From positions 1 to 12,488 of the forward strand of contig JBDRNY010000026.1 in the NCBI GenBank assembly GCA_043810635.1: a stretch of DNA of 12,488 bases, read 5' to 3'. Below are positions 3,017 to 12,488 of the stretch, piece after piece. The notes under the pieces are model-generated. The model searched no databases, had not been told where the DNA came from, and saw only the letters and a list, made by a program, of their open reading frames with translations. Numbering within the stretch: the first letter of the stretch is position 1; every line of letters begins with the position of its first letter. The position numbers and the translations under genes are program-made. The DNA comes from Candidatus Micrarchaeota archaeon (GTDB lineage: Archaea; Micrarchaeota; Micrarchaeia; Anstonellales; Anstonellaceae).

Positions 3017-3283
3017 ATTAGTATTTGCATAAACACATTAATTAAAGCTATTCGGACATAGGGATAAACGGTTGGGAATAGCGGGTTTTTGCCCGTTTTT
3101 CTTATATTTATTTTCAAAATCCCTGGTTTATATACTTTCTTTCTTTTTCCATAAAATATAACATATCGACGGGAATAAAACAGATGGTTTATAAATTTTA
3201 TTTCATTCTTATAAGCACAAGCATCCAGGCTTTGAGGCGACCAAGAAGTTTGGAAGGCAGAACTAAGAACGGGGGATGGGACA

Positions 3284-4369
3284 ATGTTTGAGAATATAGT
3301 TGCGGAAGCAAAATCTGATTCTGGTGCAAGTATGCAGAAAAAAGACGAATTTTTGTCAAATGACAAAATAAGAATAGCTATTATAGGTGTTGGCGGGGGC
3401 GGATGCAACACCATAAACAGAATGATGAGAAAGGGAATTAAATCCGCAAGATTGATTGCAATTAATACTGATAATTTGCATTTGAAAAGCATTCAGGCGC
3501 AGGAAAAAATACTTATTGGAAAATCCATTACAAGAGGTTTGGGTGCAGGAGGATTTCCTGAAATTGCTGAAAAATGCGTGCAAGCTTCTAAAAAAGAATT
3601 GACTGAAAAAATTGGGGAAAATGAATTGGTATTTATTACTGCAGGATTGGGCGGAGGGACAGGCACAGGAGGTGCGCCCACAATTGCAGAAATTGCAAAA
3701 GAGCAGGGGGCAATTGTTGTATCAATTGTAACCACCCCGTTCAAATTGGAAAGGGCAAGATTGCAGAAAGCTGAATGGGGCTTGAGAAGGCTGGCTGCTG
3801 CGTCAGATACTGTAGTTGTAATTGACAATAACAGATTATTGCAATATGCTCCAAATGTTCCTATTAATGATGCATTTAACCTCGCTGATGCAATTACTGC
3901 AAAAGCTGTGCAGGGAATTACTGAAACAATTATGTTTCCGTCTTTGCTGAATGTGGATTATGCTGATGTGAAAGCTGTGATGGAAAACGGGGGCATTTCC
4001 CTTATTTCAATAGGGGAAGGGCATGGAAATGACAGAGTGGAGCAGGTGTCAAAAACAACTTTGGAACACCCATTGCTTGATGTTTCTTATGAAGGGGCAA
4101 AAGGAGCATTGCTCCATATCGACGGGGGAAGCTCGCTTACACTCGGGGAAGTTATTAGCATTGGAGAAAGGATTACTGACAAATTTGACTTGAATGCAAA
4201 CGTGAAAATTGGTGCAAGGCTTTCTGAAAGCAAAACTGACGGAATTTCCGCAACCGCAATAGTGACTGGGTTGAAATCTGAGCAGGTTGAAAGAATTATC
4301 GGCACCGAGGAAGATGAAGCAGGAAGGCCGAAGGAAGTAACCACAGTGGAAAACATCACCTATATCTAA
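3284..4369 (+). CDS. ftsZ: Cell division GTPase FtsZ
   Basis: IAIIGVGGGGCNTINRMM nucleotide-binding N-terminus, the tubulin/FtsZ signature GGGTGTG within ITAGLGGGTGTGGAPTIAEIAKE, an NTD motif (AINTDNLHL) and a typical FtsZ C-terminal domain. A GGGGGATGGG SD-like run precedes the ATG. Confidence 0.9.
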   Translation: MFENIVAEAKSDSGASMQKKDEFLSNDKIRIAIIGVGGGGCNTINRMMRKGIKSARLIAINTDNLHLKSIQAQEKILIGKSITRGLGAGGFPEIAEKCVQASKKELTEKIGENELVFITAGLGGGTGTGGAPTIAEIAKEQGAIVVSIVTTPFKLERARLQKAEWGLRRLAAASDTVVVIDNNRLLQYAPNVPINDAFNLADAITAKAVQGITETIMFPSLLNVDYADVKAVMENGGISLISIGEGHGNDRVEQVSKTTLEHPLLDVSYEGAKGALLHIDGGSSLTLGEVISIGERITDKFDLNANVKIGARLSESKTDGISATAIVTGLKSEQVERIIGTEEDEAGRPKEVTTVENITYI

Positions 4370-4374
4370 TCTCC

Positions 4375-4400
4375 TTTTATTCTTTTTTATTCTTATTTTC
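4375..4400 (+). terminator. Oligo-T tract downstream of ftsZ (archaeal-type terminator candidate)
   Basis: tctccttttattcttttttattcttattttc lies immediately after the ftsZ stop. Archaeal termination typically occurs at T-tracts. Confidence 0.3.
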
Positions 4401-4413
4401 TATTGGTAATTAG

Positions 4414-4749
4414 ATGGATTCAGATGATGCAACTGAAAAAATAAATGAGCATTTGTTTGGAAGCAATATTGAAATGATTAAAGTGGAAAAGGGCAGGATA
4501 GTATTTCCGGACGGAAGCAGTGAGCCGGGAAAAGTAAGGGAAATCAGCACAGACAAAAAGGATGGAAAAAATATAGTAACTGTTGTTTTGGAGCCGAAAA
4601 AAGAGGGGAATGTTGAGAGGCAGAAAACAATAATAATAACTTACAGCAGCAAGGAGAGGCACATTCACTGGGACATTAAAACAAAGAAAACGACAACAAC
4701 AATAGACACAATAGGGACTAAAGAGCCGCTTAATGTCGGAAAAAGATAG
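4414..4749 (+). CDS. Hypothetical small Lys/Thr-rich protein (111 aa)
   Basis: ATG-initiated ORF downstream of ftsZ on the same strand, with no overlap by other long ORFs. No domain recognised and the sequence is low-complexity, so coding status is moderate. Confidence 0.5.
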   Translation: MDSDDATEKINEHLFGSNIEMIKVEKGRIVFPDGSSEPGKVREISTDKKDGKNIVTVVLEPKKEGNVERQKTIIITYSSKERHIHWDIKTKKTTTTIDTIGTKEPLNVGKR

Positions 4750-4760
4750 TCTGCTTATTT

Positions 4761-4768
4761 TTATATTA
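4761..4768 (+). promoter_or_regulatory. TATA-box candidate (TTATATTA) about 26-33 bp upstream of tRNA-Ala
   Basis: AT-rich octamer at the position expected for an archaeal TATA box relative to tRNA 5' end 4794. A second TATATAAT sits at 4783-4790 but is too close. Confidence 0.3.
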
Positions 4769-4793
4769 AGCATTTGCACTAATATATAATTAA

Positions 4794-4865
4794 GGGCACA
4801 TAGTCGAACGGTAAGACGCTGCCTTCGCAAGGCAGAGACTGGGGGTTCGATTCCCCCTGTGTCCA
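4794..4865 (+). tRNA. tRNA-Ala (anticodon CGC), 72 nt, no encoded CCA
   Basis: Cloverleaf folded by hand. Acceptor GGGCACA/TGTGTCC includes the G3:U70 alanine identity pair. D-stem is GTC/GAC. Anticodon stem is CTGCC/GGCAG with loop TTCGCAA (anticodon CGC). T-arm is GGGGG-TTCGATT-CCCCC. Discriminator is A. Confidence 0.9.
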
Positions 4866-4867
4866 TT

Positions 4868-5515
4868 ATGAAATCCGCAGTATTATTTTCTGGAGGGAAA
4901 GATTCGGCTTATGCAACCCAGTGGGCGCTGGAGCAGGGGCATGAAGTAATTTGGGTTAATATGCAGCCGCAGGAAGATTCGATGATGTTTCATCACCCTA
5001 ATGTAAAATGGTGCAAATTGCAATCCCAGGCTGCGGAGATAGAATTGAAAACATTTGATACAAAGCATGAGAGGGAATTAATAGATTTGGAAAATGCATT
5101 AAAGAAATTGGATGTGGAAGGGGTTGTTACGGGCGCGGTTGCTTCGGTTTACCAAAAATCCAGGATTGATAAAATTGCAAATAAATTGAAATTGGAGGTG
5201 TTTTCCCCTTTGTGGGGGAAAGATGAAGAATTTTTGAAAAAAATGTTAAGTGAAATGGAAGTGTATATTGTTTCTATTTCTGCTGAAGGGCTGGGAGAAG
5301 AATGGCTGGGGAAAAAATTTGAGAAAGAGGATGTGGATAAATTATCTGCCCTGCAGCCGAAAATAAATGTTTATTTGGAAGGCGGGGAGGGGGAAACTTT
5401 TGTTGCAGATGCGCCTTTTTTCAAAAAAAGAATTGAAATATTAAAATGGGAAAAGAAATTTGACGGAATGAGGGGGAAGGCGGTTATTAAAGAGGCGAAG
5501 TTAGTGGAGAAATAA
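4868..5515 (+). CDS. dph6: Diphthine-ammonia ligase-like PP-loop ATP pyrophosphatase (MJ0570/Dph6 family)
   Basis: N-terminal PP-loop LFSGGKDS and the C-terminal LEGGEGETF (EGGE motif), with a size of about 215 aa typical for archaeal Dph6/MJ0570. The ATG at 4868 is only 2 nt after the tRNA-Ala discriminator; the track start at 4859 is GTG inside the tRNA. Confidence 0.75.
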   Translation: MKSAVLFSGGKDSAYATQWALEQGHEVIWVNMQPQEDSMMFHHPNVKWCKLQSQAAEIELKTFDTKHERELIDLENALKKLDVEGVVTGAVASVYQKSRIDKIANKLKLEVFSPLWGKDEEFLKKMLSEMEVYIVSISAEGLGEEWLGKKFEKEDVDKLSALQPKINVYLEGGEGETFVADAPFFKKRIEILKWEKKFDGMRGKAVIKEAKLVEK

Positions 5516-5516
5516 T

Positions 5517-6128
5517 TTATTCCTCTCCTTTTTGGGCCAGATTTTCTATTCTTGTTATCATGTCATTTAATTCTTTTCCATAAACCGCATTTACTTTTAA
5601 TGTGGCGGAAAAGCGGGTGTCTATAGGCATTTCCTTGTTTATTGTTATTTCCTGGCCTTCAGTTGCTTTTTCAGGGTCGAGGGGAATGTCTGCCTTAATT
5701 CTCAAGCCATCCAACACAGTGAGCTGGACAATTTGGCCGGTGTTGGAGCGGGCTGTTAATTCTGAATCAATTGGTATTGTTTGGTCTATTTTTAATACAA
5801 AATCTTCTGGAAAAACATCTGAAATCGGGAAAGATTGGTCTATAACAACAGTTGTTTTAAGGGGGGAAGTCATTACAATTTCTTTTTGCTGAATTTCCCT
5901 CAAATCCTGGGCTATTGCCATTAATTCTGCCCTGTCTTGTGTGGATAAGCCGGGGGGGGAGGTTATGTTAAGGAAGATAGAAGTGAGGGAAAGTAGTATT
6001 GCAATAATTGCAAGAAATGTTGTGGTATCTGGCTTGAATTTTGGCTTATTGCCTGAAAAGCTTAGTTTTGATGCTTTTCTTCCTTTAAAGCCGGAAGGAA
6101 GGTGCGAAACAGATGATGGGGATGCCAT
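5517..6128 (-). CDS. Hypothetical membrane-anchored protein (N-terminal TM helix followed by a beta-rich extracytoplasmic domain, possibly SAF/CpaB-like)
   Basis: ATG start at 6128. The basic N-terminus precedes the hydrophobic segment FLAIIAILLSLTSIFL. Convergent with dph6 (stop-to-stop spacing 1 nt). Confidence 0.6.
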   Translation of the reverse strand: MASPSSVSHLPSGFKGRKASKLSFSGNKPKFKPDTTTFLAIIAILLSLTSIFLNITSPPGLSTQDRAELMAIAQDLREIQQKEIVMTSPLKTTVVIDQSFPISDVFPEDFVLKIDQTIPIDSELTARSNTGQIVQLTVLDGLRIKADIPLDPEKATEGQEITINKEMPIDTRFSATLKVNAVYGKELNDMITRIENLAQKGEE

Positions 6129-6190
6129 AATGAACTCAAAACCTTAAACCTTAAAAAATAAACATGTGAGAAAGAGGTTGGTGATAGGAT

Positions 6191-6472
6191 ATGCCTAAAG
6201 TGACTTTTAGCAAGGACAAGATTACTGTGGAAGTGCCTGCTGGCACAAAGCTTGTTGATGTTGCGGAAAAAAACGGTGCAAACATTAATTTTTCCTGCAA
6301 AGAGGGAGTGTGCTTAACCTGCCTTGTAAATATTATTTCAGGAAAGGAAAATTTGAATCCTATGACTGAAAATGAAAAAAGCACTTTGGAAGCGTTTGGG
6401 GCAAAGCCGGGGCAGAGATTGGCATGCCAGGTAATTGTAACCGGGGATTGTGTGATTGAATCAGTGGAGTGA
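6191..6472 (+). CDS. [2Fe-2S] ferredoxin (plant/adrenodoxin-type cysteine pattern)
   Basis: 93 aa with C-x4-C-x2-C ... C ligand spacing (CKEGVCLTC ... ACQV). A GGTGATAGG SD lies 3-4 nt upstream of the ATG. Confidence 0.8.
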   Translation: MPKVTFSKDKITVEVPAGTKLVDVAEKNGANINFSCKEGVCLTCLVNIISGKENLNPMTENEKSTLEAFGAKPGQRLACQVIVTGDCVIESVE

Positions 6473-6494
6473 AAACTTTCATGAGGGATGCGCT

Positions 6495-6923
6495 ATGGCA
6501 GGAAACATTGAATCTGTTGATTTTTCTAAAGAAGGTATTGCTATAAGCAACAACTATTTTGTTGATAAAAATTCGTCTGTTCTGGATATTTTGACCGGTT
6601 CCGGGCTAAAAATAAAAGTGATAAAAACTGTGGATGAATTTAAGGGGGAGGAAACATATTCCCTGACGATTGATGGGGATGCAAGTTCTTTAGGGAAAAA
6701 AGATGTGCTGCCAGCCACATTTGAGATTAGCAAAGAGCAGTATAATACGCTTATGGCGCTTTGTGAAAAGAAGAAGACTGCACGTTTTCCTTATGGCTCA
6801 ATTACCGATGAAAAGAAGGCTGCGGAGGAAGTAATAAAAAATCTTATTGATGAAAAGCAGATGTATCCGGATATTAAAGAGGCGCTGTTTCCCACCAAAA
6901 ACTACAGCCTAACTAAGCATTAG
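6495..6923 (+). CDS. Hypothetical protein (142 aa from ATG at 6495; the ORF is open from 6456)
   Basis: In-frame ATG at 6495 is preceded by GAGGGATG (SD-like). The alternative start at 6456 would overlap the ferredoxin by 17 nt. T-rich terminator-like tracts follow at about 6985-7030. Confidence 0.55.
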   Translation: MAGNIESVDFSKEGIAISNNYFVDKNSSVLDILTGSGLKIKVIKTVDEFKGEETYSLTIDGDASSLGKKDVLPATFEISKEQYNTLMALCEKKKTARFPYGSITDEKKAAEEVIKNLIDEKQMYPDIKEALFPTKNYSLTKH

Positions 6924-7037
6924 GCATGCGCCCAAAGCATTTTTATTCATGAAACGAGCTAAAATAATTAGAGTATAACAGTTCTTTTCTTTTTTAATGA
7001 AAGTTTTTTCTTTTTTGAAAAGAAAAAAATTTCTCCG

Positions 7038-7080
7038 CTTCGCCTTCTGGCGAAGTCCAACCAACTTGCTTCGCAAGTTG
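7038..7080 (+). other. Two tandem GC-containing hairpins immediately 5' of tRNA-Ser: CTTCGCC-ttct-GGCGAAG at 7038-7055 and CAACTTG-cttcg-CAAGTTG at 7062-7080
   Basis: Perfect 7-bp inverted repeats read directly. They occupy the space where a TATA box would be expected, and no TATA-like element is seen within 40 bp of the tRNA 5' end. Confidence 0.35.
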
Positions 7081-7085
7081 ATTGT

Positions 7086-7218
7086 GCCGGTGTCGCATAA
7101 CCTGGTAGTGCGCTGGTCTTGAAGAGCCCTTTTCCACCTTTGGTGCAAAAGCCCTCGGGGAAAAGCTCTGGAAAACCAGTTCCTTACGGAATTGTAGGTT
7201 CAAATCCTGCCGCCGGCG
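7086..7218 (+). tRNA. tRNA-Ser (anticodon UGA), class II with long variable arm, interrupted by a ~50-nt intron (about 7124..7173) at the canonical 37/38 position; no encoded CCA
   Basis: Hand fold. Acceptor GCCGGTG/CGCCGGC has one G:U. D-stem is GCAT/GTGC with a 9-nt GG-containing loop. Anticodon stem 5' CTGGT (7113-7117) pairs with ACCAG (7175-7179) only if 7124-7173 is removed, leaving loop CTTGAAA (anticodon TGA). Variable arm is TTCC-TTAC-GGAA (14 nt). T-arm is GTAGG-TTCAAAT-CCTGC. Discriminator G73 fits Ser identity. The intron termini form a helix AGAGC/GCTCT compatible with a BHB-like splice motif. Confidence 0.8.
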
Positions 7219-7311
7219 TCGCTTCGCTCCGCCTTACGGCAGTCCCCCCAACAAGTTGAGGACCTACAAAGTGCGCGAGCACTGGGGCACCATCGCCATG
7301 GGCGATGATTG

Positions 7312-7412: not shown

Positions 7413-8429
7413 ATGGGCAGTAAAGCAATTCTTGGTTTGATATTTCTGTCTTTGATGCTTTTTATTTTTGTTTCAGGCTGTACCCAGGAGGCATTTGCAT
7501 GCAACAAACCATATATCCAAGTAGGCTCGGAATGCTGCCTGGACCAGGATAGCAACGAAATATGCGACAAAGATGAACAGGGGCAGCAGCCTGCCGCACA
7601 AGGTGCAAATGCAGATGAAAATGCAATGGGTGCGACTGGAGATGAGGCAGGCTCTGCAAATGCCACTGCAGATGAGAATGCAATTGGCGCGGGCGAGGCA
7701 GGCGCTAAAGATGCCGGCGTAGGCGGGGGAGGGGCATTTGAGGAATGGAAAGCTCCTGACGGCTCAATCACGCTGCAGGTGCCTGCGGGCTGGAAACCAA
7801 GTGAGAAGCAGGTGGACACGTGCACTGTAAGCTGGGCTGTGCTAGACCCTGCAGGCACGAGCTCTGCCTACATGGACAACGAGATAATGGTTCTGAAGTC
7901 TGAGGATGCGCGGCAGATGTACAAAACATATGGCATGAGCGGGATTGACAATGCTCCTGTGAGCAGCTATCTTGGGGCAGAGCAGGCAGTGCAGCAAATT
8001 ATTGCGCCGCTCACCGGCGCAAGCAATGTGCGGATAATTTATACTGATGATGCGATGAGCCAGCAATTCTCGCAGGCTGTGTGCATTGCAGGCTTTGCAG
8101 CGTGCGATGCGCGGGTTTTCGAGGCTGCCTACCAGAGGAACGGAATCCTGATGAGGGGCAAATACTTTGTGCAGACTTATGATTTCGGCGAGGGCACCAC
8201 GTGGTGGATAAATATCTGGGGCTATACTTCGCCTGCTGAAGGCTGGGACAATTCCATTCCTGTGCTGGAAAGAACATTCACCTCGGTAAAATATACTGAT
8301 GAGTGGGCTGCCAAGTGCCAGAAGAACTCTGATGAAGCAAGCGCTGTGATTGGCGAAGTGGTTAAGAGCAGGCAGGCATCGTCAGAAAAGTCAGCAGAGG
8401 AGTGGGACAAGTATATTAGGGGCGGATAA
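7413..8429 (+). CDS. Secreted lipoprotein candidate of unknown function, GC-rich relative to its surroundings, with a Gly/Ala/Asp/Glu-rich repeat linker
   Basis: AGGTGGT SD lies 5 nt upstream of the ATG. The signal peptide MGSKAILGLIFLSLMLFIFVSGC has a lipobox-like VSGC. The linker has near-tandem repeats ADENAMGATGDEAGSANAT / ADENAIGAGEAGAKDAG, followed by a Cys-containing globular domain. Composition is visibly GC-richer (roughly 55-60% by eye) than flanking genes. Confidence 0.75.
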   Translation: MGSKAILGLIFLSLMLFIFVSGCTQEAFACNKPYIQVGSECCLDQDSNEICDKDEQGQQPAAQGANADENAMGATGDEAGSANATADENAIGAGEAGAKDAGVGGGGAFEEWKAPDGSITLQVPAGWKPSEKQVDTCTVSWAVLDPAGTSSAYMDNEIMVLKSEDARQMYKTYGMSGIDNAPVSSYLGAEQAVQQIIAPLTGASNVRIIYTDDAMSQQFSQAVCIAGFAACDARVFEAAYQRNGILMRGKYFVQTYDFGEGTTWWINIWGYTSPAEGWDNSIPVLERTFTSVKYTDEWAAKCQKNSDEASAVIGEVVKSRQASSEKSAEEWDKYIRGG

Positions 8430-8520: not shown

Positions 8521-8668
8521 TAAATATTAGGCAACCAAAAAACTGCGAAAAATTTGCATAACAAAATTTCTTTTGCCTGGGAGGGCGAAAGAAAATTTTT
8601 GTTTATTAGGGAGGCTGATTGAATGGTGCCTTTTGGAAAAAGTATTTCTTCTTTTTTTATTTTATTTC

Positions 8669-8693
8669 TTATTTTTCTTCAATAAAATCCTCA
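8669..8693 (+). repeat. Direct repeat copy 1 (TATTTTTCTTCAATAAAATC[C/T]TCAA) flanking the COG1373 ATPase cassette
   Basis: A 20-nt exact match, extending to 25 nt with one mismatch, to 10479-10503. Both copies are preceded by T7-ATTTT runs. Confidence 0.5.
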
Positions 8694-8817
8694 AGCATCT
8701 GCCTTGCAACGGGGTCTGAAAATTGTTTTGGGGGGTGTTTCATAAAATAAGCTGAAGGCGCTTCAAGAGGGCCGGCAATCCCCCTGTCAAGGGCGATTTG
8801 AGCGCAATGCCCATTTC

Positions 8818-10083
8818 CTAATTCCCCTTCCCAAGAAGAAACTCATATACCGGCATATATTCAAGCTTTATCGGCTTTGAAACTTTTTTTCTGAAATTTT
8901 TGGTAATTACCATGGCTTTCTTGCATTTGTATTTTTTGCAGAAAAGCACAAGTGCGTTTTCCCGCTCTGGCTTTGCCCTGTATTTTATTTCCACAGGCAT
9001 AATTCCCTTTGCGCCGGCAAGGATCATGTCAATCTCGTTTTTGCGCTTGTCTCTCCAGAAATATTTTGCACCAGAGCGGAGTATGCAGACTGCCTCCACA
9101 AGCTTTGAAAAATATTCCTCCCCCCCATGGCCGGAAAGCGCGGGGCTTAAGAATGAGGGATAATACTTCTTGAGCCTTTTTTCCGAAGTTGCCCTGTTCC
9201 TTGAAAAGTTGTAAAGCTTTTTTACAAGGTGCGCGCGCTCAAGGTAGTCAAAATACTTGGATACAGTCTGCCTTGATATTCCAAGCTCGCGGGAAAATGA
9301 GTCAAAATCAACCACCATGCCGGGGTTGTCTGCCAATATGTTGAGCATGGAAATGAGGATTTGCGGATTTTCTATGGGGTATAATTTTTTCATGTCCTTG
9401 AAAACAATCTTCTCCACTACTGAATCCTTGATATAATCCCTCACAAGGGCGGCATCTTTTTTCCCTATAATCTCGGGGAAGCCCGCGCACATAACATAGC
9501 CTTCAAATTCCGCCCTCAACTCCGCATCATAAACAAGCGGCTTTTTTGCAAGCCCTTCTTTTCCCCTGAATTTAAGGTATTCTGCAAAAGACAATGCCTC
9601 AACCTCGAATTCGTAAATCCTTCCTGCAAGGCTTTCGCGCGAACCTTCAAGCAGGAAAAGGGATTCTGAGCCGCTGGCAAATATCCTGTATTTTCCGCTG
9701 TCATACAAAACTTTGACTTTTTCAGCCCAATTTCCAAGCTTCTGCACCTCGTCAAGCAGGAGGAATTTCGGCTCCCTGCCGTGCATTGCCATAAATTCGT
9801 CTATTATCTCAAGAAGCTCTCCCCCCGCAAAATCATCAAATGAAAAATACATAATGGAATCGGGGGGGTTTGTTTTCAGCAGGTCGGATATTATCTTGTT
9901 GAGCAACGTGCTTTTGCCAACCCTTCTCAGGCCGCACAATGCGATTATCTGCCTCTCACCCATCCTTTTGGATATCTTTTTATATATCTCCCGCTCCACA
10001 TAGGCAAATTCATGCTTCCCTTTCCAAAAGGGGTTGAATTCTACCAACATCCTTCTTATTTTTTCGTTAATTTTAATCACCAT
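8818..10083 (-). CDS. AAA+ superfamily ATPase of the COG1373 type (AAA_14 + DUF4143 architecture), function unknown
   Basis: Walker A GLRRVGKST and Walker B FLLLDEVQ in the N-terminal half. The C-terminal region (…YFWRDKRKNEIDMILA…VEIKY) is typical of the DUF4143 domain of this archaea-abundant, usually multi-copy family. Clean ATG at 10083. Confidence 0.85.
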   Translation of the reverse strand: MVIKINEKIRRMLVEFNPFWKGKHEFAYVEREIYKKISKRMGERQIIALCGLRRVGKSTLLNKIISDLLKTNPPDSIMYFSFDDFAGGELLEIIDEFMAMHGREPKFLLLDEVQKLGNWAEKVKVLYDSGKYRIFASGSESLFLLEGSRESLAGRIYEFEVEALSFAEYLKFRGKEGLAKKPLVYDAELRAEFEGYVMCAGFPEIIGKKDAALVRDYIKDSVVEKIVFKDMKKLYPIENPQILISMLNILADNPGMVVDFDSFSRELGISRQTVSKYFDYLERAHLVKKLYNFSRNRATSEKRLKKYYPSFLSPALSGHGGEEYFSKLVEAVCILRSGAKYFWRDKRKNEIDMILAGAKGIMPVEIKYRAKPERENALVLFCKKYKCKKAMVITKNFRKKVSKPIKLEYMPVYEFLLGKGN

Positions 10084-10094
10084 AAAGTAAACTA

Positions 10095-10114
10095 TGTGTT
10101 AATTATACTTAACA
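10095..10114. promoter_or_regulatory. Palindrome GTGTTAA-ttatac-TTAACAC overlapping a TATA-like element 12-31 bp upstream of the ATPase start codon
   Basis: Perfect 7-bp inverted repeat read directly. On the minus strand it reads GTATAATTAAC, a plausible TATA box for a short-leader transcript of the ATPase gene. Confidence 0.35.
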
Positions 10115-10181
10115 CAAAGTTAAAAAGGCTTTCGGATGCTGGCTGAAGGGCCGATTATTGAGCCTCCTATTCCTGCCTAAC

Positions 10182-10239
10182 ATTTTGTAACTATTCTTTT
10201 ACAAAATACCTGCTTTTTGTAATATCAACTTTACAAAAT
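10182..10239. promoter_or_regulatory. Tandem pair of 9-N8-9 palindromes: ATTTTGTAA-N8-TTACAAAAT (10182-10207) and TTTTTGTAA-N8-TTACAAAAT (10214-10239), about 32 bp centre-to-centre. Candidate double operator.
   Basis: Half-sites are exact reverse complements (second site has one variant base in the left half). The spacing of about three helical turns is typical of cooperative dimeric transcription-factor sites. Located 100-155 bp upstream of the ATPase gene and just upstream of the structured region 10290-10445. Confidence 0.45.
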
Positions 10240-10289
10240 GCAAATATATGCCGCTTTATTTGTGCGGATTTTTGTACTGAGAATTTGCA

Positions 10290-10445
10290 GCATGTTATAG
10301 CAAACCACGAAAGTTTTACGAATTTCCTGCTTTGCTTCTGCCTCGTGGTTTGCTAGGTTGCAGGCCGCATTACGGCAAACCAGAAGAGGTTTGCCGGGCT
10401 GCAGGACGCTTAAGCGGACTGCAGGACTTTGGCGGACTGCAATAA
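10290..10445 (+). other. GC-rich, highly structured non-coding segment (candidate sRNA gene) with nested GCAAACC-based hairpins and tandem GCGGACTGCAGGAC-like repeats
   Basis: Hairpin A is GCAAACCACGA (10303-10313) / TCGTGGTTTGC (10343-10353). Hairpin B is GGCAAACC-agaaga-GGTTTGCC (10374-10395). Three degenerate tandem units contain CTGCAG (10396-10442). An AAATATAT TATA-like element precedes at about 10242-10249 and long oligo-T tracts follow (10455-10490). Only short, mutually overlapping ORFs cross it. Confidence 0.3.
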
Positions 10446-10478
10446 TTTGCATTTATTTTTTTCTAATTTTTTTATTTT

Positions 10479-10503
10479 TATTTTTCTTCAATAAAATCTT
10501 CAA
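10479..10503 (+). repeat. Direct repeat copy 2 (TATTTTTCTTCAATAAAATCTTCAA), partner of 8669-8693
   Basis: See copy 1. The two copies bracket about 1.8 kb containing the ATPase gene, its palindromic promoter region, the double operator and the structured non-coding region. Confidence 0.5.
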
Positions 10504-10715
10504 CCCGACATATGCAGAAGACAATGATTATAGTACATACGCATCTCGCCAGAGCGGATTGCCTTCGGTCTATTATAGTTATTCCACTTCAATACCTTCA
10601 GGCATGACTGCTGCAACATGGCATGTAAAACACGGAGATATTGCCGCATATGACATAACTCTGGTATCGTCCTGCAGAAATCAAAATCCAATACAACTTA
10701 GAATTAGGAAACTAT

Positions 10716-10949
10716 TTATTGCAGCTTTTTCAATATTGCACCTAAGAGGATAACAAGCCCAATTATTATCAGTATTGAAGGGCATATGGGAACATTAAAG
10801 CTCCACCATGCAAGCTCTTTTCCGAACCAATATAATCCAATAAGGGATATCGCAACTCCTACGAGAATGCTTCCCCAGCTTATACGAGTGCTATGATGCC
10901 ATTTCCATCCCCTTTCCCATTCTCTAAAATCCATCTGTTTTTTTACCAT
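10716..10949 (-). CDS. Small membrane protein (77 aa, two predicted TM helices), co-operonic with gvp genes
   Basis: ATG at 10949 is preceded on the minus strand by GTGGTGTT (GGTG SD) with correct spacing. It has two hydrophobic stretches and an 8-nt gap to the upstream gene. Confidence 0.5.
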   Translation of the reverse strand: MVKKQMDFREWERGWKWHHSTRISWGSILVGVAISLIGLYWFGKELAWWSFNVPICPSILIIIGLVILLGAILKKLQ

Positions 10950-10957
10950 AACACCAC

Positions 10958-11170
10958 CTACTGTTGCTGTCGCATTCTAAAATATTTATAACCAAACCAG
11001 AGGGCGATTATCCCCGTTACTGTCCAAAATATGCTAAAGATAAGAAGAACAACCTGCGGGATGCTGCTCCCGCCAGGAACCGCTAAAAGCAGCGCACCAG
11101 TTGCAATCGCTGCCAACCCAAAGAAAAGCGCAATCTCTGGAGATTGCTGTGTTATCGGCAAATTTTCCAT
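10958..11170 (-). CDS. Small membrane protein (70 aa, two predicted TM helices), co-operonic with gvp genes
   Basis: ATG at 11170 is 1 nt after the stop of the GvpA/J-family gene. Hydrophobic segments are ALFFGLAAIATGALLLAV and VVLLIFSIFWTVTGIIALWFGY. Confidence 0.55.
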   Translation of the reverse strand: MENLPITQQSPEIALFFGLAAIATGALLLAVPGGSSIPQVVLLIFSIFWTVTGIIALWFGYKYFRMRQQQ

Positions 11171-11171
11171 A

Positions 11172-11426
11172 CTACACCACCACCTCGACCTTTTTATCCT
11201 TTTTTACCTCTTCATCCGCCATCTCCATCCGTATTTTTTCATCCAAATCTTCCATCATGCCATAGCTTATCATAGTGTCCATATTGGCAAGAGCAGCCCT
11301 TAAATTGATTCCTAATAGTGGAACACCGGCAAGGGTTACAACAACATCTGCTTGAATGACAATCCCTTTGTCGAGGACCCTGCCCAGCAAGTCCACAAGC
11401 GCAGAATTTTCATCTTTCAATTCCAT
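11172..11426 (-). CDS. Gas vesicle structural protein of the GvpA/GvpJ/GvpM family (acidic C-terminal tail, more GvpJ-like)
   Basis: Core LVDLLGRVLDKGIVIQADVVVTLAGVPLLGINLRAALANMDTMISYG aligns with the GvpA consensus (LAEVLDRVLDKGVVVDxWxRxSLVGIEILTVEARVVxASVDTxLxYAE). The ATG at 11426 is preferred because the longer track start at 11477 is TTG. Confidence 0.8.
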   Translation of the reverse strand: MELKDENSALVDLLGRVLDKGIVIQADVVVTLAGVPLLGINLRAALANMDTMISYGMMEDLDEKIRMEMADEEVKKDKKVEVVV

Positions 11427-11748
11427 CCAGATCCAACTCGAAAAATGTTTGATAAATTTCACTAAGCCAATTGTCAACTTTTCTTATAGCAATATAATTA
11501 ACCCGCCCTCCCGAAACGATTTGGAGCTGCTTAACCATTTTTGAGAGTATGCATTTTCTTTTTACGATATCAACCTTTTCCAAGTCTTCCAAATATCTTT
11601 GAAAGGTAACTTTTTCACCTTGAGCAAAGATAAGCCTTCTGGTTGTCAAATGAAGGTAGCCTGGCTTCCAGGAAACCATCTGCTGAAATAACCCCTGGTC
11701 CCGGAGTACTAGCTCCTCGTTTTCTAAAGGCCTTAGTTTTTGAAACAT
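11410..11748 (-). CDS. Hypothetical protein (112 aa) with a bacterial-PH/GRAM-like signature (GYLHLTTRRLIF), embedded in the gvp operon
   Basis: ATG at 11748 is 9 nt after the GvpF/L stop, and the 3' end overlaps the GvpA/J-family start by 17 nt. The G-x-L-x-LT-x-R-x-IF pattern resembles bPH_2/DUF304-type PH domains. This assignment is tentative. Confidence 0.5.
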   Translation of the reverse strand: MFQKLRPLENEELVLRDQGLFQQMVSWKPGYLHLTTRRLIFAQGEKVTFQRYLEDLEKVDIVKRKCILSKMVKQLQIVSGGRVNYIAIRKVDNWLSEIYQTFFELDLDGIER

Positions 11749-11757
11749 GTTTATGCC

Positions 11758-12488
11758 TCATAAAAATGAATACGGAGCCCAAGGCCCGGTTATGCGGCCG
11801 GAAAGATTGTTAAAATCATCCATTTTTTCCAATTCTTCCTTAAATTGTGCGGCATTTTCTTTTTGTATAAGGCAAGAAACATTTAGCAGCATAGTTTTTC
11901 CATCTGCTTTCCTTGTTTTTCCGGAGCGCATATCACTGCAACAATTTTTTATTATGGATTGCACTTCTTTTGCGAGCTCGCTGGTTTTTTCCCCAAGTTC
12001 CTTTTTAACCACGCTTTCAAATGTCTGCTTGCACAGGTATGCATGGCCTGGCGAATCTGCTGCTTCCATTTTCTTTTTCAATTCGGCCACTCTCTCATTT
12101 TTATTAAGAATGTCCTGAAGAAGCCTTTCCCTGTCCATAAATACTTGAACACCATATTCCTGCTTGCCTCTAAGCTCGTTTAGTTTTCTTTCTAAATCAG
12201 GATGCTGCTCTTCAAGCCATTTTTGCACAGCCTCGTTTGACCCGCTATCTTTCTCTTTTATTATGGTGTCAAACCTCAAAGGAACAGCCGCGTTGAATTT
12301 ATTAAAGGCGAGATCAATGACGCTATTGTGGGCCTGTGCATAATTAATAATAACATTTTCATCCTTTGAATCATAGGCTTTAGGAAGGCAATTATGCACT
12401 ACTGCGCTTATGCCCAAATGTGGAATTGTATATACATTGTTTTCTTCTATGCCAATTTTGCCAAGGCTGATAAAATCGCCAGTATCAA
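11758..12488 (-). CDS. Gas vesicle protein GvpF/GvpL family (5' end beyond window)
   Basis: The C-terminus ...SGRITGPWAPYSFL matches the conserved GvpF/L terminal motif (GPWPPYSF). The coiled, charged central region is typical. The frame stays open past the TTG at 12417 to the window edge (upstream residues ...DFISLGKIGIEENNVYTIPHLG resemble the GvpF N-terminal beta-strand region). Confidence 0.85.
   Translation of the reverse strand, partial: DTGDFISLGKIGIEENNVYTIPHLGISAVVHNCLPKAYDSKDENVIINYAQAHNSVIDLAFNKFNAAVPLRFDTIIKEKDSGSNEAVQKWLEEQHPDLERKLNELRGKQEYGVQVFMDRERLLQDILNKNERVAELKKKMEAADSPGHAYLCKQTFESVVKKELGEKTSELAKEVQSIIKNCCSDMRSGKTRKADGKTMLLNVSCLIQKENAAQFKEELEKMDDFNNLSGRITGPWAPYSFL

Follow-up and report, generated by a model that had tools for sequence, protein, structure and literature searches.

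The folded element and its surroundings

The window analysed here is an entire 12,488-bp contig from the metagenome-assembled genome of a Candidatus Micrarchaeota archaeon (a DPANN archaeon), and our subject is an intergenic element of 166 nt at 10286-10451 that a preliminary description had proposed to be a small structured RNA gene. Its gene content is that of an ordinary chromosome (Fic, FtsZ, diphthine-ammonia ligase, ferredoxin, tRNA-Ala and an intron-containing tRNA-Ser), and the element lies inside a 632-nt gap separating two minus-strand genes. The right border of the gap is the last gas vesicle-linked gene, with its stop at 10716, and the left border is a gene for an ATPase with AAA_14 and DUF4143 domains (8818-10083), the start of which points away from the element.

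Self-complementary structure was found at the coordinates given, most of it stronger than first described. Folded as RNA, the segment 10280-10460 reached -71.7 kcal/mol compared with -50.9 ± 4.0 kcal/mol for dinucleotide shuffles (z = -5.2), and 0 of 200 shuffles folded as well. The stem originally given as 11 bp is a perfect 13-bp stem (hairpin X1), and the second stem on the same GCAAACC core, given as 8 bp, has 9 bp (hairpin X2; Table 1). The region had also been called strikingly GC-rich, which is correct relative to its flanks (0.51 versus 0.33 and 0.35) and not in absolute terms. Plus- and minus-strand energies were -71.0 versus -64.1 kcal/mol for 10286-10451 and -31.7 versus -27.9, -33.1 versus -26.7 and -26.7 versus -24.5 kcal/mol in the further comparisons, the greater stability being that of the plus orientation in every copy of the module described next.

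The repeating unit of the element is a module composed of a hairpin X (GGCAAACC/GGTTTGCC) followed by a hairpin Y (UUGCAGGNCGC/GCGGNCUGCAA), and in the window a second complete module, X2 plus Y2, is nested within the Y-hairpin loop of the first. This architecture accounts for the three or so tandem GCGGACTGCAGGAC units of the preliminary description: three such units are present within 10394-10445 at up to 3 mismatches, and the whole window holds 4 versus 0.5 expected, a number no shuffle attained, but each of them is a 5' or 3' arm of one of the nested hairpins Y2 and Y1, and they form no simple tandem array. Within the window, GCAAACC, GGTTTGC, CTGCAGGAC and GCGGAC are confined to the element. 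The loop of X1 holds an 85% copy (20 nt, 10314-10333) of the upstream segment 10197-10216, which spans the linker between the two tandem palindromic units described below; it is listed as direct repeat D6.

The signals on either side are arranged as first described, with a TATA-like box 37 nt ahead of the closing stem and four oligo-T runs just downstream; the box, AAATATAT, is similar to the TTTTTATATT box upstream of the tRNA-Ala gene in the same window. Archaeal transcription starts at a usual spacing of ~25 nt downstream of the TATA box and terminates at oligo-T, and because the box and the four runs frame the plus strand, they favour an RNA from that strand. Between the ATPase promoter and the box lie palindromes of the form TTTTGTAA-N7-TTTACAAAAT, with 4 matches on the two strands versus 0.01 expected; this spot is their only site in the window, none of 33 fetched loci has them, and the twin units, each a perfect palindrome, look like operators. 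A 10-bp inverted repeat brackets the element and overlaps the box, an arrangement that is only suggestive given its estimated chance of ~0.2 in a 700-nt AT-rich region. As had been noted at the outset, only short open reading frames (ORFs) cross the element; none of them has a family match.

Directly after the repeats comes a 45-nt, near-pure A/T tract (10452-10497), and past it stands an isolated inverted Y arm (I8), in the stretch where GTCCTGCAG has its single occurrence in the window (10666-10677). The layout recalls a replication origin, in which the repeats would flank an AT-rich unwinding tract and the adjacent AAA+ winged-helix protein, similar in size to Orc1/Cdc6, would act as initiator. 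Archaeal oriC regions carry inverted ORB repeats on both sides of an AT-rich unwinding element and lie beside orc1/cdc6; here the repeats sit almost all on one side of the tract, the neighbour is an AAA_14/DUF4143 ATPase and not Orc1/Cdc6, the region is unconserved in related genomes, and there is no GC-skew turn in the window. We consider an origin-like function extremely unlikely.

Table 1. Features of the folded element and its immediate surroundings (window coordinates)
Feature	Position	Strand	Sequence or structure	Basis
Divergent neighbour, AAA_14 + DUF4143 (PD-(D/E)XK) ATPase	8818..10083	-		match to PADLOC candidate PDC-S01, E = 4e-59
Two tandem 32-nt units, between ATPase promoter and TATA-like box	10183-10207, 10215-10239		each a palindrome TTTTGTAA-N7-TTTACAAAAT	
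Perfect 10-bp inverted repeat, bracketing the element and overlapping the TATA-like box	10236-10245 / 10445-10454		AAATGCAAAT / ATTTGCATTT	inverted repeat I7
TATA-like box	10242-10249	+	AAATATAT; 37 nt ahead of closing stem	sequence reading
Whole folded element	10286..10451	+	closing stem P0 around X1, Y1, X2, Y2	
Closing stem P0	10286-10290 / 10447-10451	+	UGCAG / UUGCA	predicted fold
Hairpin X1	10298-10310 / 10343-10355	+	perfect 13-bp stem TAGCAAACCACGA / TCGTGGTTTGCTA, 32-nt loop	inverted repeat I4, fold
Y1 5' arm	10357-10368	+	GUUGCAG-G-CCGC	fold; aligns with Y 5' arms of L013 and L029
Inner complete module M2	10373..10424	+	X2 + Y2	covariance model R1, 78.8 bits; homologous to L013, L029
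Hairpin X2	10373-10381 / 10388-10396	+	9-bp stem CGGCAAACC / GGTTTGCCG, loop AGAAGA	same GCAAACC core
Hairpin Y2	10399-10424	+	CUGCAG-GA-CGC-UUAA-GCG-GA-CUGCAG, tandem G-A internal loop	fold
Y1 3' arm	10432-10443	+	GCGG-A-CUGCAAU, closing Y1 around inserted M2	fold
Oligo-T runs T7, T7, T5, T5	10456-10462, 10467-10473, 10475-10479, 10481-10485	+	candidate archaeal terminators	role inferred
Isolated inverted Y arm, past T-rich tract	10666-10677		TCGTCCTGCAG (versus GCGTCCTGCAG, reverse complement of Y2 5' arm)	I8, I12

A module shared with two unrelated contigs

Copies of the module were located on two unrelated metagenome contigs, at 1772-1830 of L013 and at 877-819 of L029. Their identity is 95% across a stretch of exactly 59 nt, with no similarity in the flanks, as would be seen for a small gene, or some other discrete functional unit, in unrelated contexts. 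L029 derives from groundwater sites (ERR2108714 / PRJEB22302). The L013 module reads GGCAAACC-12 nt-GGTTTGCC-A-GGTTGCAGGACGC-GAA-GCGGGCTGCAAT; it is enclosed by a closing stem of unrelated sequence and lies between 12-nt direct repeats (TTTACGCGGAAA, at ~1705 and ~1864, ~160 nt apart). In L029 an additional X-type hairpin (UAUGGCAAA ... UUUGCCAUA) precedes the module. Both contigs have GCGAAGC at the tip of Y, which we take to be an unusually stable DNA mini-hairpin. A cluster look-up indicated that both contigs have close relatives, of 6018 bp for L029 and 3790 bp for L013.

Four copies from three loci (window M1 minus M2, window M2, L013 and L029) were brought into one alignment, A1, in which 97.4% of the cells of 19 proposed pairs are paired. 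Three of the 19 pairs have changed on both sides and are still paired (U-A to C-G, G-C to A-U and U-A to C-G), and when the 3' partners were slid by 1-3 columns, pairing fell to 25-46% and the double changes all disappeared. The X stem is maintained with a loop of 6, 12, 12 or 32 nt, so that a fixed-spacing dimer site on double-stranded DNA does not fit and a folded single strand does; the conservation of pairing likewise argues for a folded single strand over a fixed-spacing duplex site or chance. Such covariation is equally expected for a hairpin of single-stranded DNA and does not separate RNA from it. Two features of Y speak for the plus orientation: read this way, three copies carry a G-U pair at one and the same place, and the internal loop is purine-purine (GA/GA, or GA/GG in L013 and L029); on the opposite strand these would become C-A mismatches and pyrimidine loops.

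No ORF is shared among the window, L013 and L029 on either strand. A coding reading was rejected: in L013 and L029 the module can be translated as MANRAGA(R/E)FARLQDAKRAAI, but the window version has no ATG and contains an in-frame stop.

At gathering thresholds, Rfam 15 returned only the two tRNAs from the window. At E ≤ 10 the best match in 10050-10750 was IS009, with 16.6 bits versus a gathering score of 117, and the element regions of L013 and L029 gave nothing relevant. The families covered include archaeal RNase P, signal recognition particle (SRP) RNA, 5S rRNA, tRNA, C/D and H/ACA small RNAs (sRNAs), Hgc RNAs, self-cleaving ribozymes and HEARO/omega RNAs. The preliminary description, which could not place the region as RNase P, SRP RNA or a C/D box sRNA, was borne out, as no Rfam family accounts for it even at E ≤ 10, and the Rfam search it had proposed gave no match that explains the region as a known element. 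Searched as a modular pattern, the module had 0 true matches in 185,579 species-representative genomes (3 chance matches in Actinomycetota), and in 241 million metagenome records 1 true match, namely L013, besides 8 chance matches. Three patterns gave 0 matches in viral contigs, where a scan for the ATPase protein also gave 0, and BLAST against plasmids and phages gave 0. With the covariance model R1 we found one copy per locus (219 kb of related sequence); of the source genome, these counts cover the 12.5-kb contig. This low copy number argues against a repeat of the REP or MITE type. We confirmed the element to be a real, non-random, conserved hairpin module outside every described family.

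Synteny breaks and the neighbouring ATPase

Eight related loci, L004-L011, match the gas vesicle end of the window at 71-76% nucleotide identity, and their similarity ends exactly at 10713-10716; none of them has the element. On the FtsZ/diphthine-ammonia ligase side, L021-L028 match the window over 3271-7258 (FtsZ to tRNA-Ser) and after that only over 8667-8806, and they too are without the element. Because the similarity to relatives ends at 8806 on one side and at 10713-10716 on the other, the ATPase gene and the element together lie between two synteny breaks. At the first break, 8684-8806 (minus strand) holds what is left of an inositol-1-phosphate synthase gene: its final ~41 codons, which share 80% amino acid identity with the intact L028 gene, are present and its first ~317 are missing. 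The ATPase stop codon (8818) lies 11 nt beyond this remnant. The truncation beside the ATPase gene indicates that the segment was recently rearranged or inserted, or else that the assembly is chimeric at this junction.

Such a setting raises the question of whether the element is a functionless by-product, produced by local direct and inverted duplications or by chimeric assembly at a rearrangement junction. The copied 20-mer in the X1 loop (D6) attests to local duplication activity, the segment lies between two breaks beside a freshly truncated gene, and the contig comes from a metagenome-assembled genome. Set against this, the module is 95% identical in two independent contigs from other samples with unrelated flanks, and the copies keep their pairing through changes on both sides. 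Since the occurrences are independent, an assembly artefact does not explain them, and we consider the by-product explanation improbable.

The ATPase gene is the immediate neighbour within the segment between the breaks. DUF4143 belongs to the PD-(D/E)XK nuclease superfamily (PMC3424549), and PDC-S01, the PADLOC candidate that the protein matches, is among the commonest archaeal defence candidates and has not been validated experimentally (PMC12988326). Its closest homologue is encoded on L029 (P0008, 64% amino acid identity, reciprocal best), where the module lies 1.1 kb upstream of the ATPase gene with two genes between and, as in the window, divergent from it. In the four homologues that come next (L030-L033) the upstream region is short and the module is absent from it, and L013 (a 6-kb contig) has the module and no such ATPase, so that the link between ATPase and module was seen at 2 of 7 loci examined. 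The genes on L029 between module and ATPase (1408-1935) encode a ParD-like antitoxin and an 87-aa partner, and on the other side of the module (2-553) is a fragment of a D12-class adenine methyltransferase gene; such genes are what one finds in a defence or mobile island. The window and L013 both carry Fic genes. In the window, the ATPase gene has its TATA box within a palindrome with 16-nt arms, TGTGTTAAGTATAATTAACACA (window 10090-10121), and similar GTTAA...TTAAC palindromes occur at the promoters of homologues (L029 ~1975-2005, L030 ~3960-3990), which suggests autoregulation by a helix-turn-helix protein.

These observations bear on two further readings. Were the element an array of protein-binding sites on double-stranded DNA, in a region controlling both the divergent ATPase promoter and rightward transcription, a regulator, perhaps the ATPase through its own winged-helix part, would occupy the GCAAACC and CTGCAGG half-sites. 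The intergenic region is indeed packed with palindromes (10090-10121, the twin TTTTGTAA units at 10183-10239, X and Y), four GCAAACC sites stand in alternating orientation in both the window and L029, the further inverted Y arm lies past the AT-rich tract, and the ATPase, which is linked to the module in the window and L029, gave weak MarR/Csa3-like helix-turn-helix matches. This reading must contend with X half-sites spaced 6, 12 or 32-40 nt apart and with compensatory changes that preserve complementarity, neither of which is expected for duplex dimer binding, as well as with the ATPase-less L013 contig, the module-less upstream regions of L030-L033 and the distance and intervening genes on L029; we judge it improbable as well. 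The other is that the X-Y module represents a new DPANN family of structured nucleic acids working with a subclade of the PDC-S01 ATPase-nuclease, for example as a guide, decoy, sensor or antitoxin-like RNA or as a hairpin substrate of the nuclease, which at present appears quite improbable.

Several observations on the remainder of the contig stand on their own. The gas vesicle cluster tail (10716-12488, minus strand) encodes GvpL/F, a GvpA/J-type protein and small membrane proteins, and the cluster is kept at 71-76% nucleotide identity in several related contigs (L004-L011), one of them the 1.37-Mb contig Ga0209514_10000001; gas vesicles seem unusual in a DPANN archaeon with a reduced genome. 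The tRNA-Ser(UGA) gene (7086-7218, plus strand) has an intron of ~50 nt in the anticodon loop and was missed by ARAGORN and found by Rfam with 41 bits; relative L024 also has the intron, in diverged sequence, and the tRNA of L028 is continuous. Between this tRNA gene and the synthase remnant, a 338-aa ORF (7413-8429, plus strand) gave no Pfam, NCBIfam or PADLOC match. Relatives carry ParE/RHH (L028) or LigT (L023 and L024) at this position, making it a variable spot beside a tRNA gene. Exact look-up of the 77-aa and 421-aa proteins of the window returned no record. The PstI-type palindrome CTGCAG occurs 11 times in the window versus 3.2 ± 1.7 expected from shuffles, none of which reached 11, and is clearly not avoided; 3 of the sites lie in or beside the element.

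Structured RNA or DNA hairpin, and comparison with known systems

We tentatively read the element as the gene for an orphan, unclassified structured non-coding RNA of ~170-190 nt on the plus strand, and give this reading a probability of roughly 0.4. The structure, the conservation and covariation of the module and the absence of coding potential are direct observations; transcription, its strand and ends, and binding by a protein are inferred. With the usual archaeal spacing the transcript would start ~25 nt after the AAATATAT box, at ~10272-10276, and it would end in the oligo-T runs at 10456-10485. The RNA would form a rod of three stacked stems (P0, Y1 and Y2) bearing the side hairpins X1 and X2 on its 5' strand. 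Its functional unit would be the 59-nt module, with X (UGGCAAACC / GGUUUGCCA, loop variable) followed directly by Y in the order UUGCAG, purine-purine internal loop, CGC-loop-GCG and CUGCAA. The window version may have arisen by duplication, one module having come to nest in the Y-hairpin loop of another, and would then present two copies of a probable protein-binding surface made up of sequence-conserved stems and G-A mismatches. More speculatively, the twin TTTTGTAA/TTACAAAA palindromes might regulate the promoter of the element, that of the divergent ATPase gene, or both.

The proposal of a small structured RNA gene has accordingly stood in part, with the fold, the plus-strand layout of promoter and terminator, the non-coding character and the covariation of the module in two further contigs on its side, while a number of observations weigh against it. 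Both strands fold: the reverse strand gave z = -6.0, nearly equal to the plus strand, the longer L013 and L029 segments are slightly more stable on the opposite strand, and the L029 region taken more widely folds no better than expected (z = -0.5). The covariation rests on four copies from three loci, and its control (a) was reached by 9 of 500 shuffles, a figure that is not a probability. G-U pairs account for just 3 of the 76 cells, every one of them at the same helix end, and the 13-bp stem of X1 is perfect; these two features are more typical of DNA palindromes or recent inverted duplications than of old RNAs. The stem sequences, moreover, are conserved and the loops are not. In L013 and L029 there is no convincing TATA box or oligo-T run at matching positions, and the 'ATATAT' 26 nt upstream of the L029 module belongs to the extra X-type arm. 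Conservation of the hairpins, which the preliminary description had suggested examining, is likewise divided, since the module with its compensatory changes is present in L013 and L029 and absent from the syntenic Micrarchaeota loci and from 219 kb of related sequence. Finally, copies that are nested or partial, together with the 10-bp inverted repeat around the element and the L013 direct repeats, resemble recombining DNA, and the neighbourhood is plastic and of defence type.

The main rival is a serious alternative, a DNA-level role having been flagged in the preliminary description in the form of a protein-binding repeat array. It is a hairpin or palindrome mosaic acting at the DNA level, like REP/BIME, IS200/IS605-type ends, integron attC or the CTX phage attP, in which a recombinase, transposase or nuclease would recognise X and Y as hairpins of single-stranded DNA, and in which the nested module and partial arms would be traces of recombination in a plastic, defence-type island. 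HUH and tyrosine recombinases read hairpins through conserved stem sequence and mismatches, and the stems here are near-perfect, sequence-conserved and almost without G-U, with a conserved mismatch in Y. The discreteness of the 59-nt homology between unrelated flanks, the nesting of module in module, the additional X-type arm pair upstream of the L029 module, the 12-nt repeats TTTACGCGGAAA on either side of the L013 module and the inverted repeat I7 around the window element all suit this reading, as does the GCGAAGC tip of Y in L013 and L029. So do the position of the element, with the truncated synthase gene (8684-8806) on one side and the point where the gas vesicle cluster stops (10716) on the other, and the neighbouring PD-(D/E)XK ATPase-nuclease (PDC-S01), ParD-like (L029) and Fic genes. 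On the other hand, none of the three contigs has a transposase, integrase or HUH gene, copy number in huge databases is very low, unlike that of REP, MITE and BIME, the window yields no definable target-site duplication, the attC core sites RYYYAAC / GTTRRRY are matched by neither X nor Y as read from the sequence, and the one-strand stability advantage and the purine-purine loops suit an RNA equally. We hold the DNA-level explanation to be somewhat less likely than the RNA gene.

To our knowledge, hardly any non-coding RNAs beyond the universal ones have been described in DPANN archaea such as Micrarchaeota, and a conserved foldable module outside Rfam would extend the list slightly. If the ATPase link is functional, the module offers a handle on how a PDC-S01-type protein works, and a PDC-S01 partnership, if true, would supply a nucleic-acid partner for a very abundant, uncharacterised defence candidate; if the element is instead a recombination site of single-stranded DNA, it would indicate that reduced archaeal genomes reshuffle their islands in a manner not yet described. 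At three loci, this is a modest lead and no discovery, and the ATPase link is its most interesting thread.

Individual known classes were compared and set aside. A C/D box sRNA (~50-70 nt) has a C box, RUGAUGA, near its 5' end and a D box, CUGA, near its 3' end; by eye, no TGATGA occurs in 10240-10500, and the L013 and L029 modules show neither box near the respective end. An H/ACA sRNA has a pseudouridylation pocket, a kink-turn (K-turn) or K-loop, and an ANA box ~14-15 nt 3' of the pocket; here the X stems are continuous without a pocket, the Y loop is a symmetric 2x2 purine loop and no K-turn, and the stem is followed by AUA, AUA and AUC with no conserved ACA. The defining motifs of split or permuted tRNA, RNase P P4, group II intron domain V, the bulge-helix-bulge stem and the K-turn were absent by eye. 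For integron attC, GGCAAAC / GTTTGCC and GTTGCAG miss the core consensus, there is a single copy per contig and no tyrosine recombinase is encoded. The consensus of the CRESS/RCR nonanucleotide is not matched, and the counts given above (0 in 185,579 genomes, 1 in 241 million records, 0 viral) are not the many-copy pattern of a MITE, REP or REPIN.

Among DNA-level systems, the bacterial REP/BIME mosaics and REPINs share with the element two kinds of short intergenic palindromic units that form hairpins, partial units nearby and a plastic setting. REP, BIME and REPIN families number tens to hundreds of copies per genome and are accompanied by RAYT transposases, whereas the element occurs at three loci only in very large collections with no transposase seen. 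Recombination sites of single-stranded DNA (attC, IS200/IS605 ends) resemble it in having hairpins with conserved irregularities, a loop or central part of variable length, and toxin-antitoxin and defence-type neighbours, the genes of L029 being mostly co-oriented; the element differs from them in having no IntI or TnpA gene and one copy per contig as opposed to one per cassette.

Among RNA systems, the RNA partners of defence systems (type III toxin-antitoxin, retron msr-msd) offer the parallel of a structured, repeated non-coding module beside a defence candidate, PDC-S01, with a linkage that recurs in the closest homologue, L029. Unlike type III toxin-antitoxin systems and retrons, the locus has no reverse transcriptase or endoribonuclease toxin, and the module is divergent from the gene and not co-transcribed with it; moreover, the four next-closest ATPase homologues are without it. 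Hgc RNAs are orphan, GC-rich structured sRNA genes of AT-rich archaea that were found by screens of GC content. The element departs from them in its lack of an Rfam match, its unusually perfect, G-U-poor stems and its nested 59-nt module duplication, and it is like archaeal sRNA genes of the Hgc type in being a non-coding, GC-richer folding island in an AT-rich intergenic region, with a TATA-like box and oligo-T.

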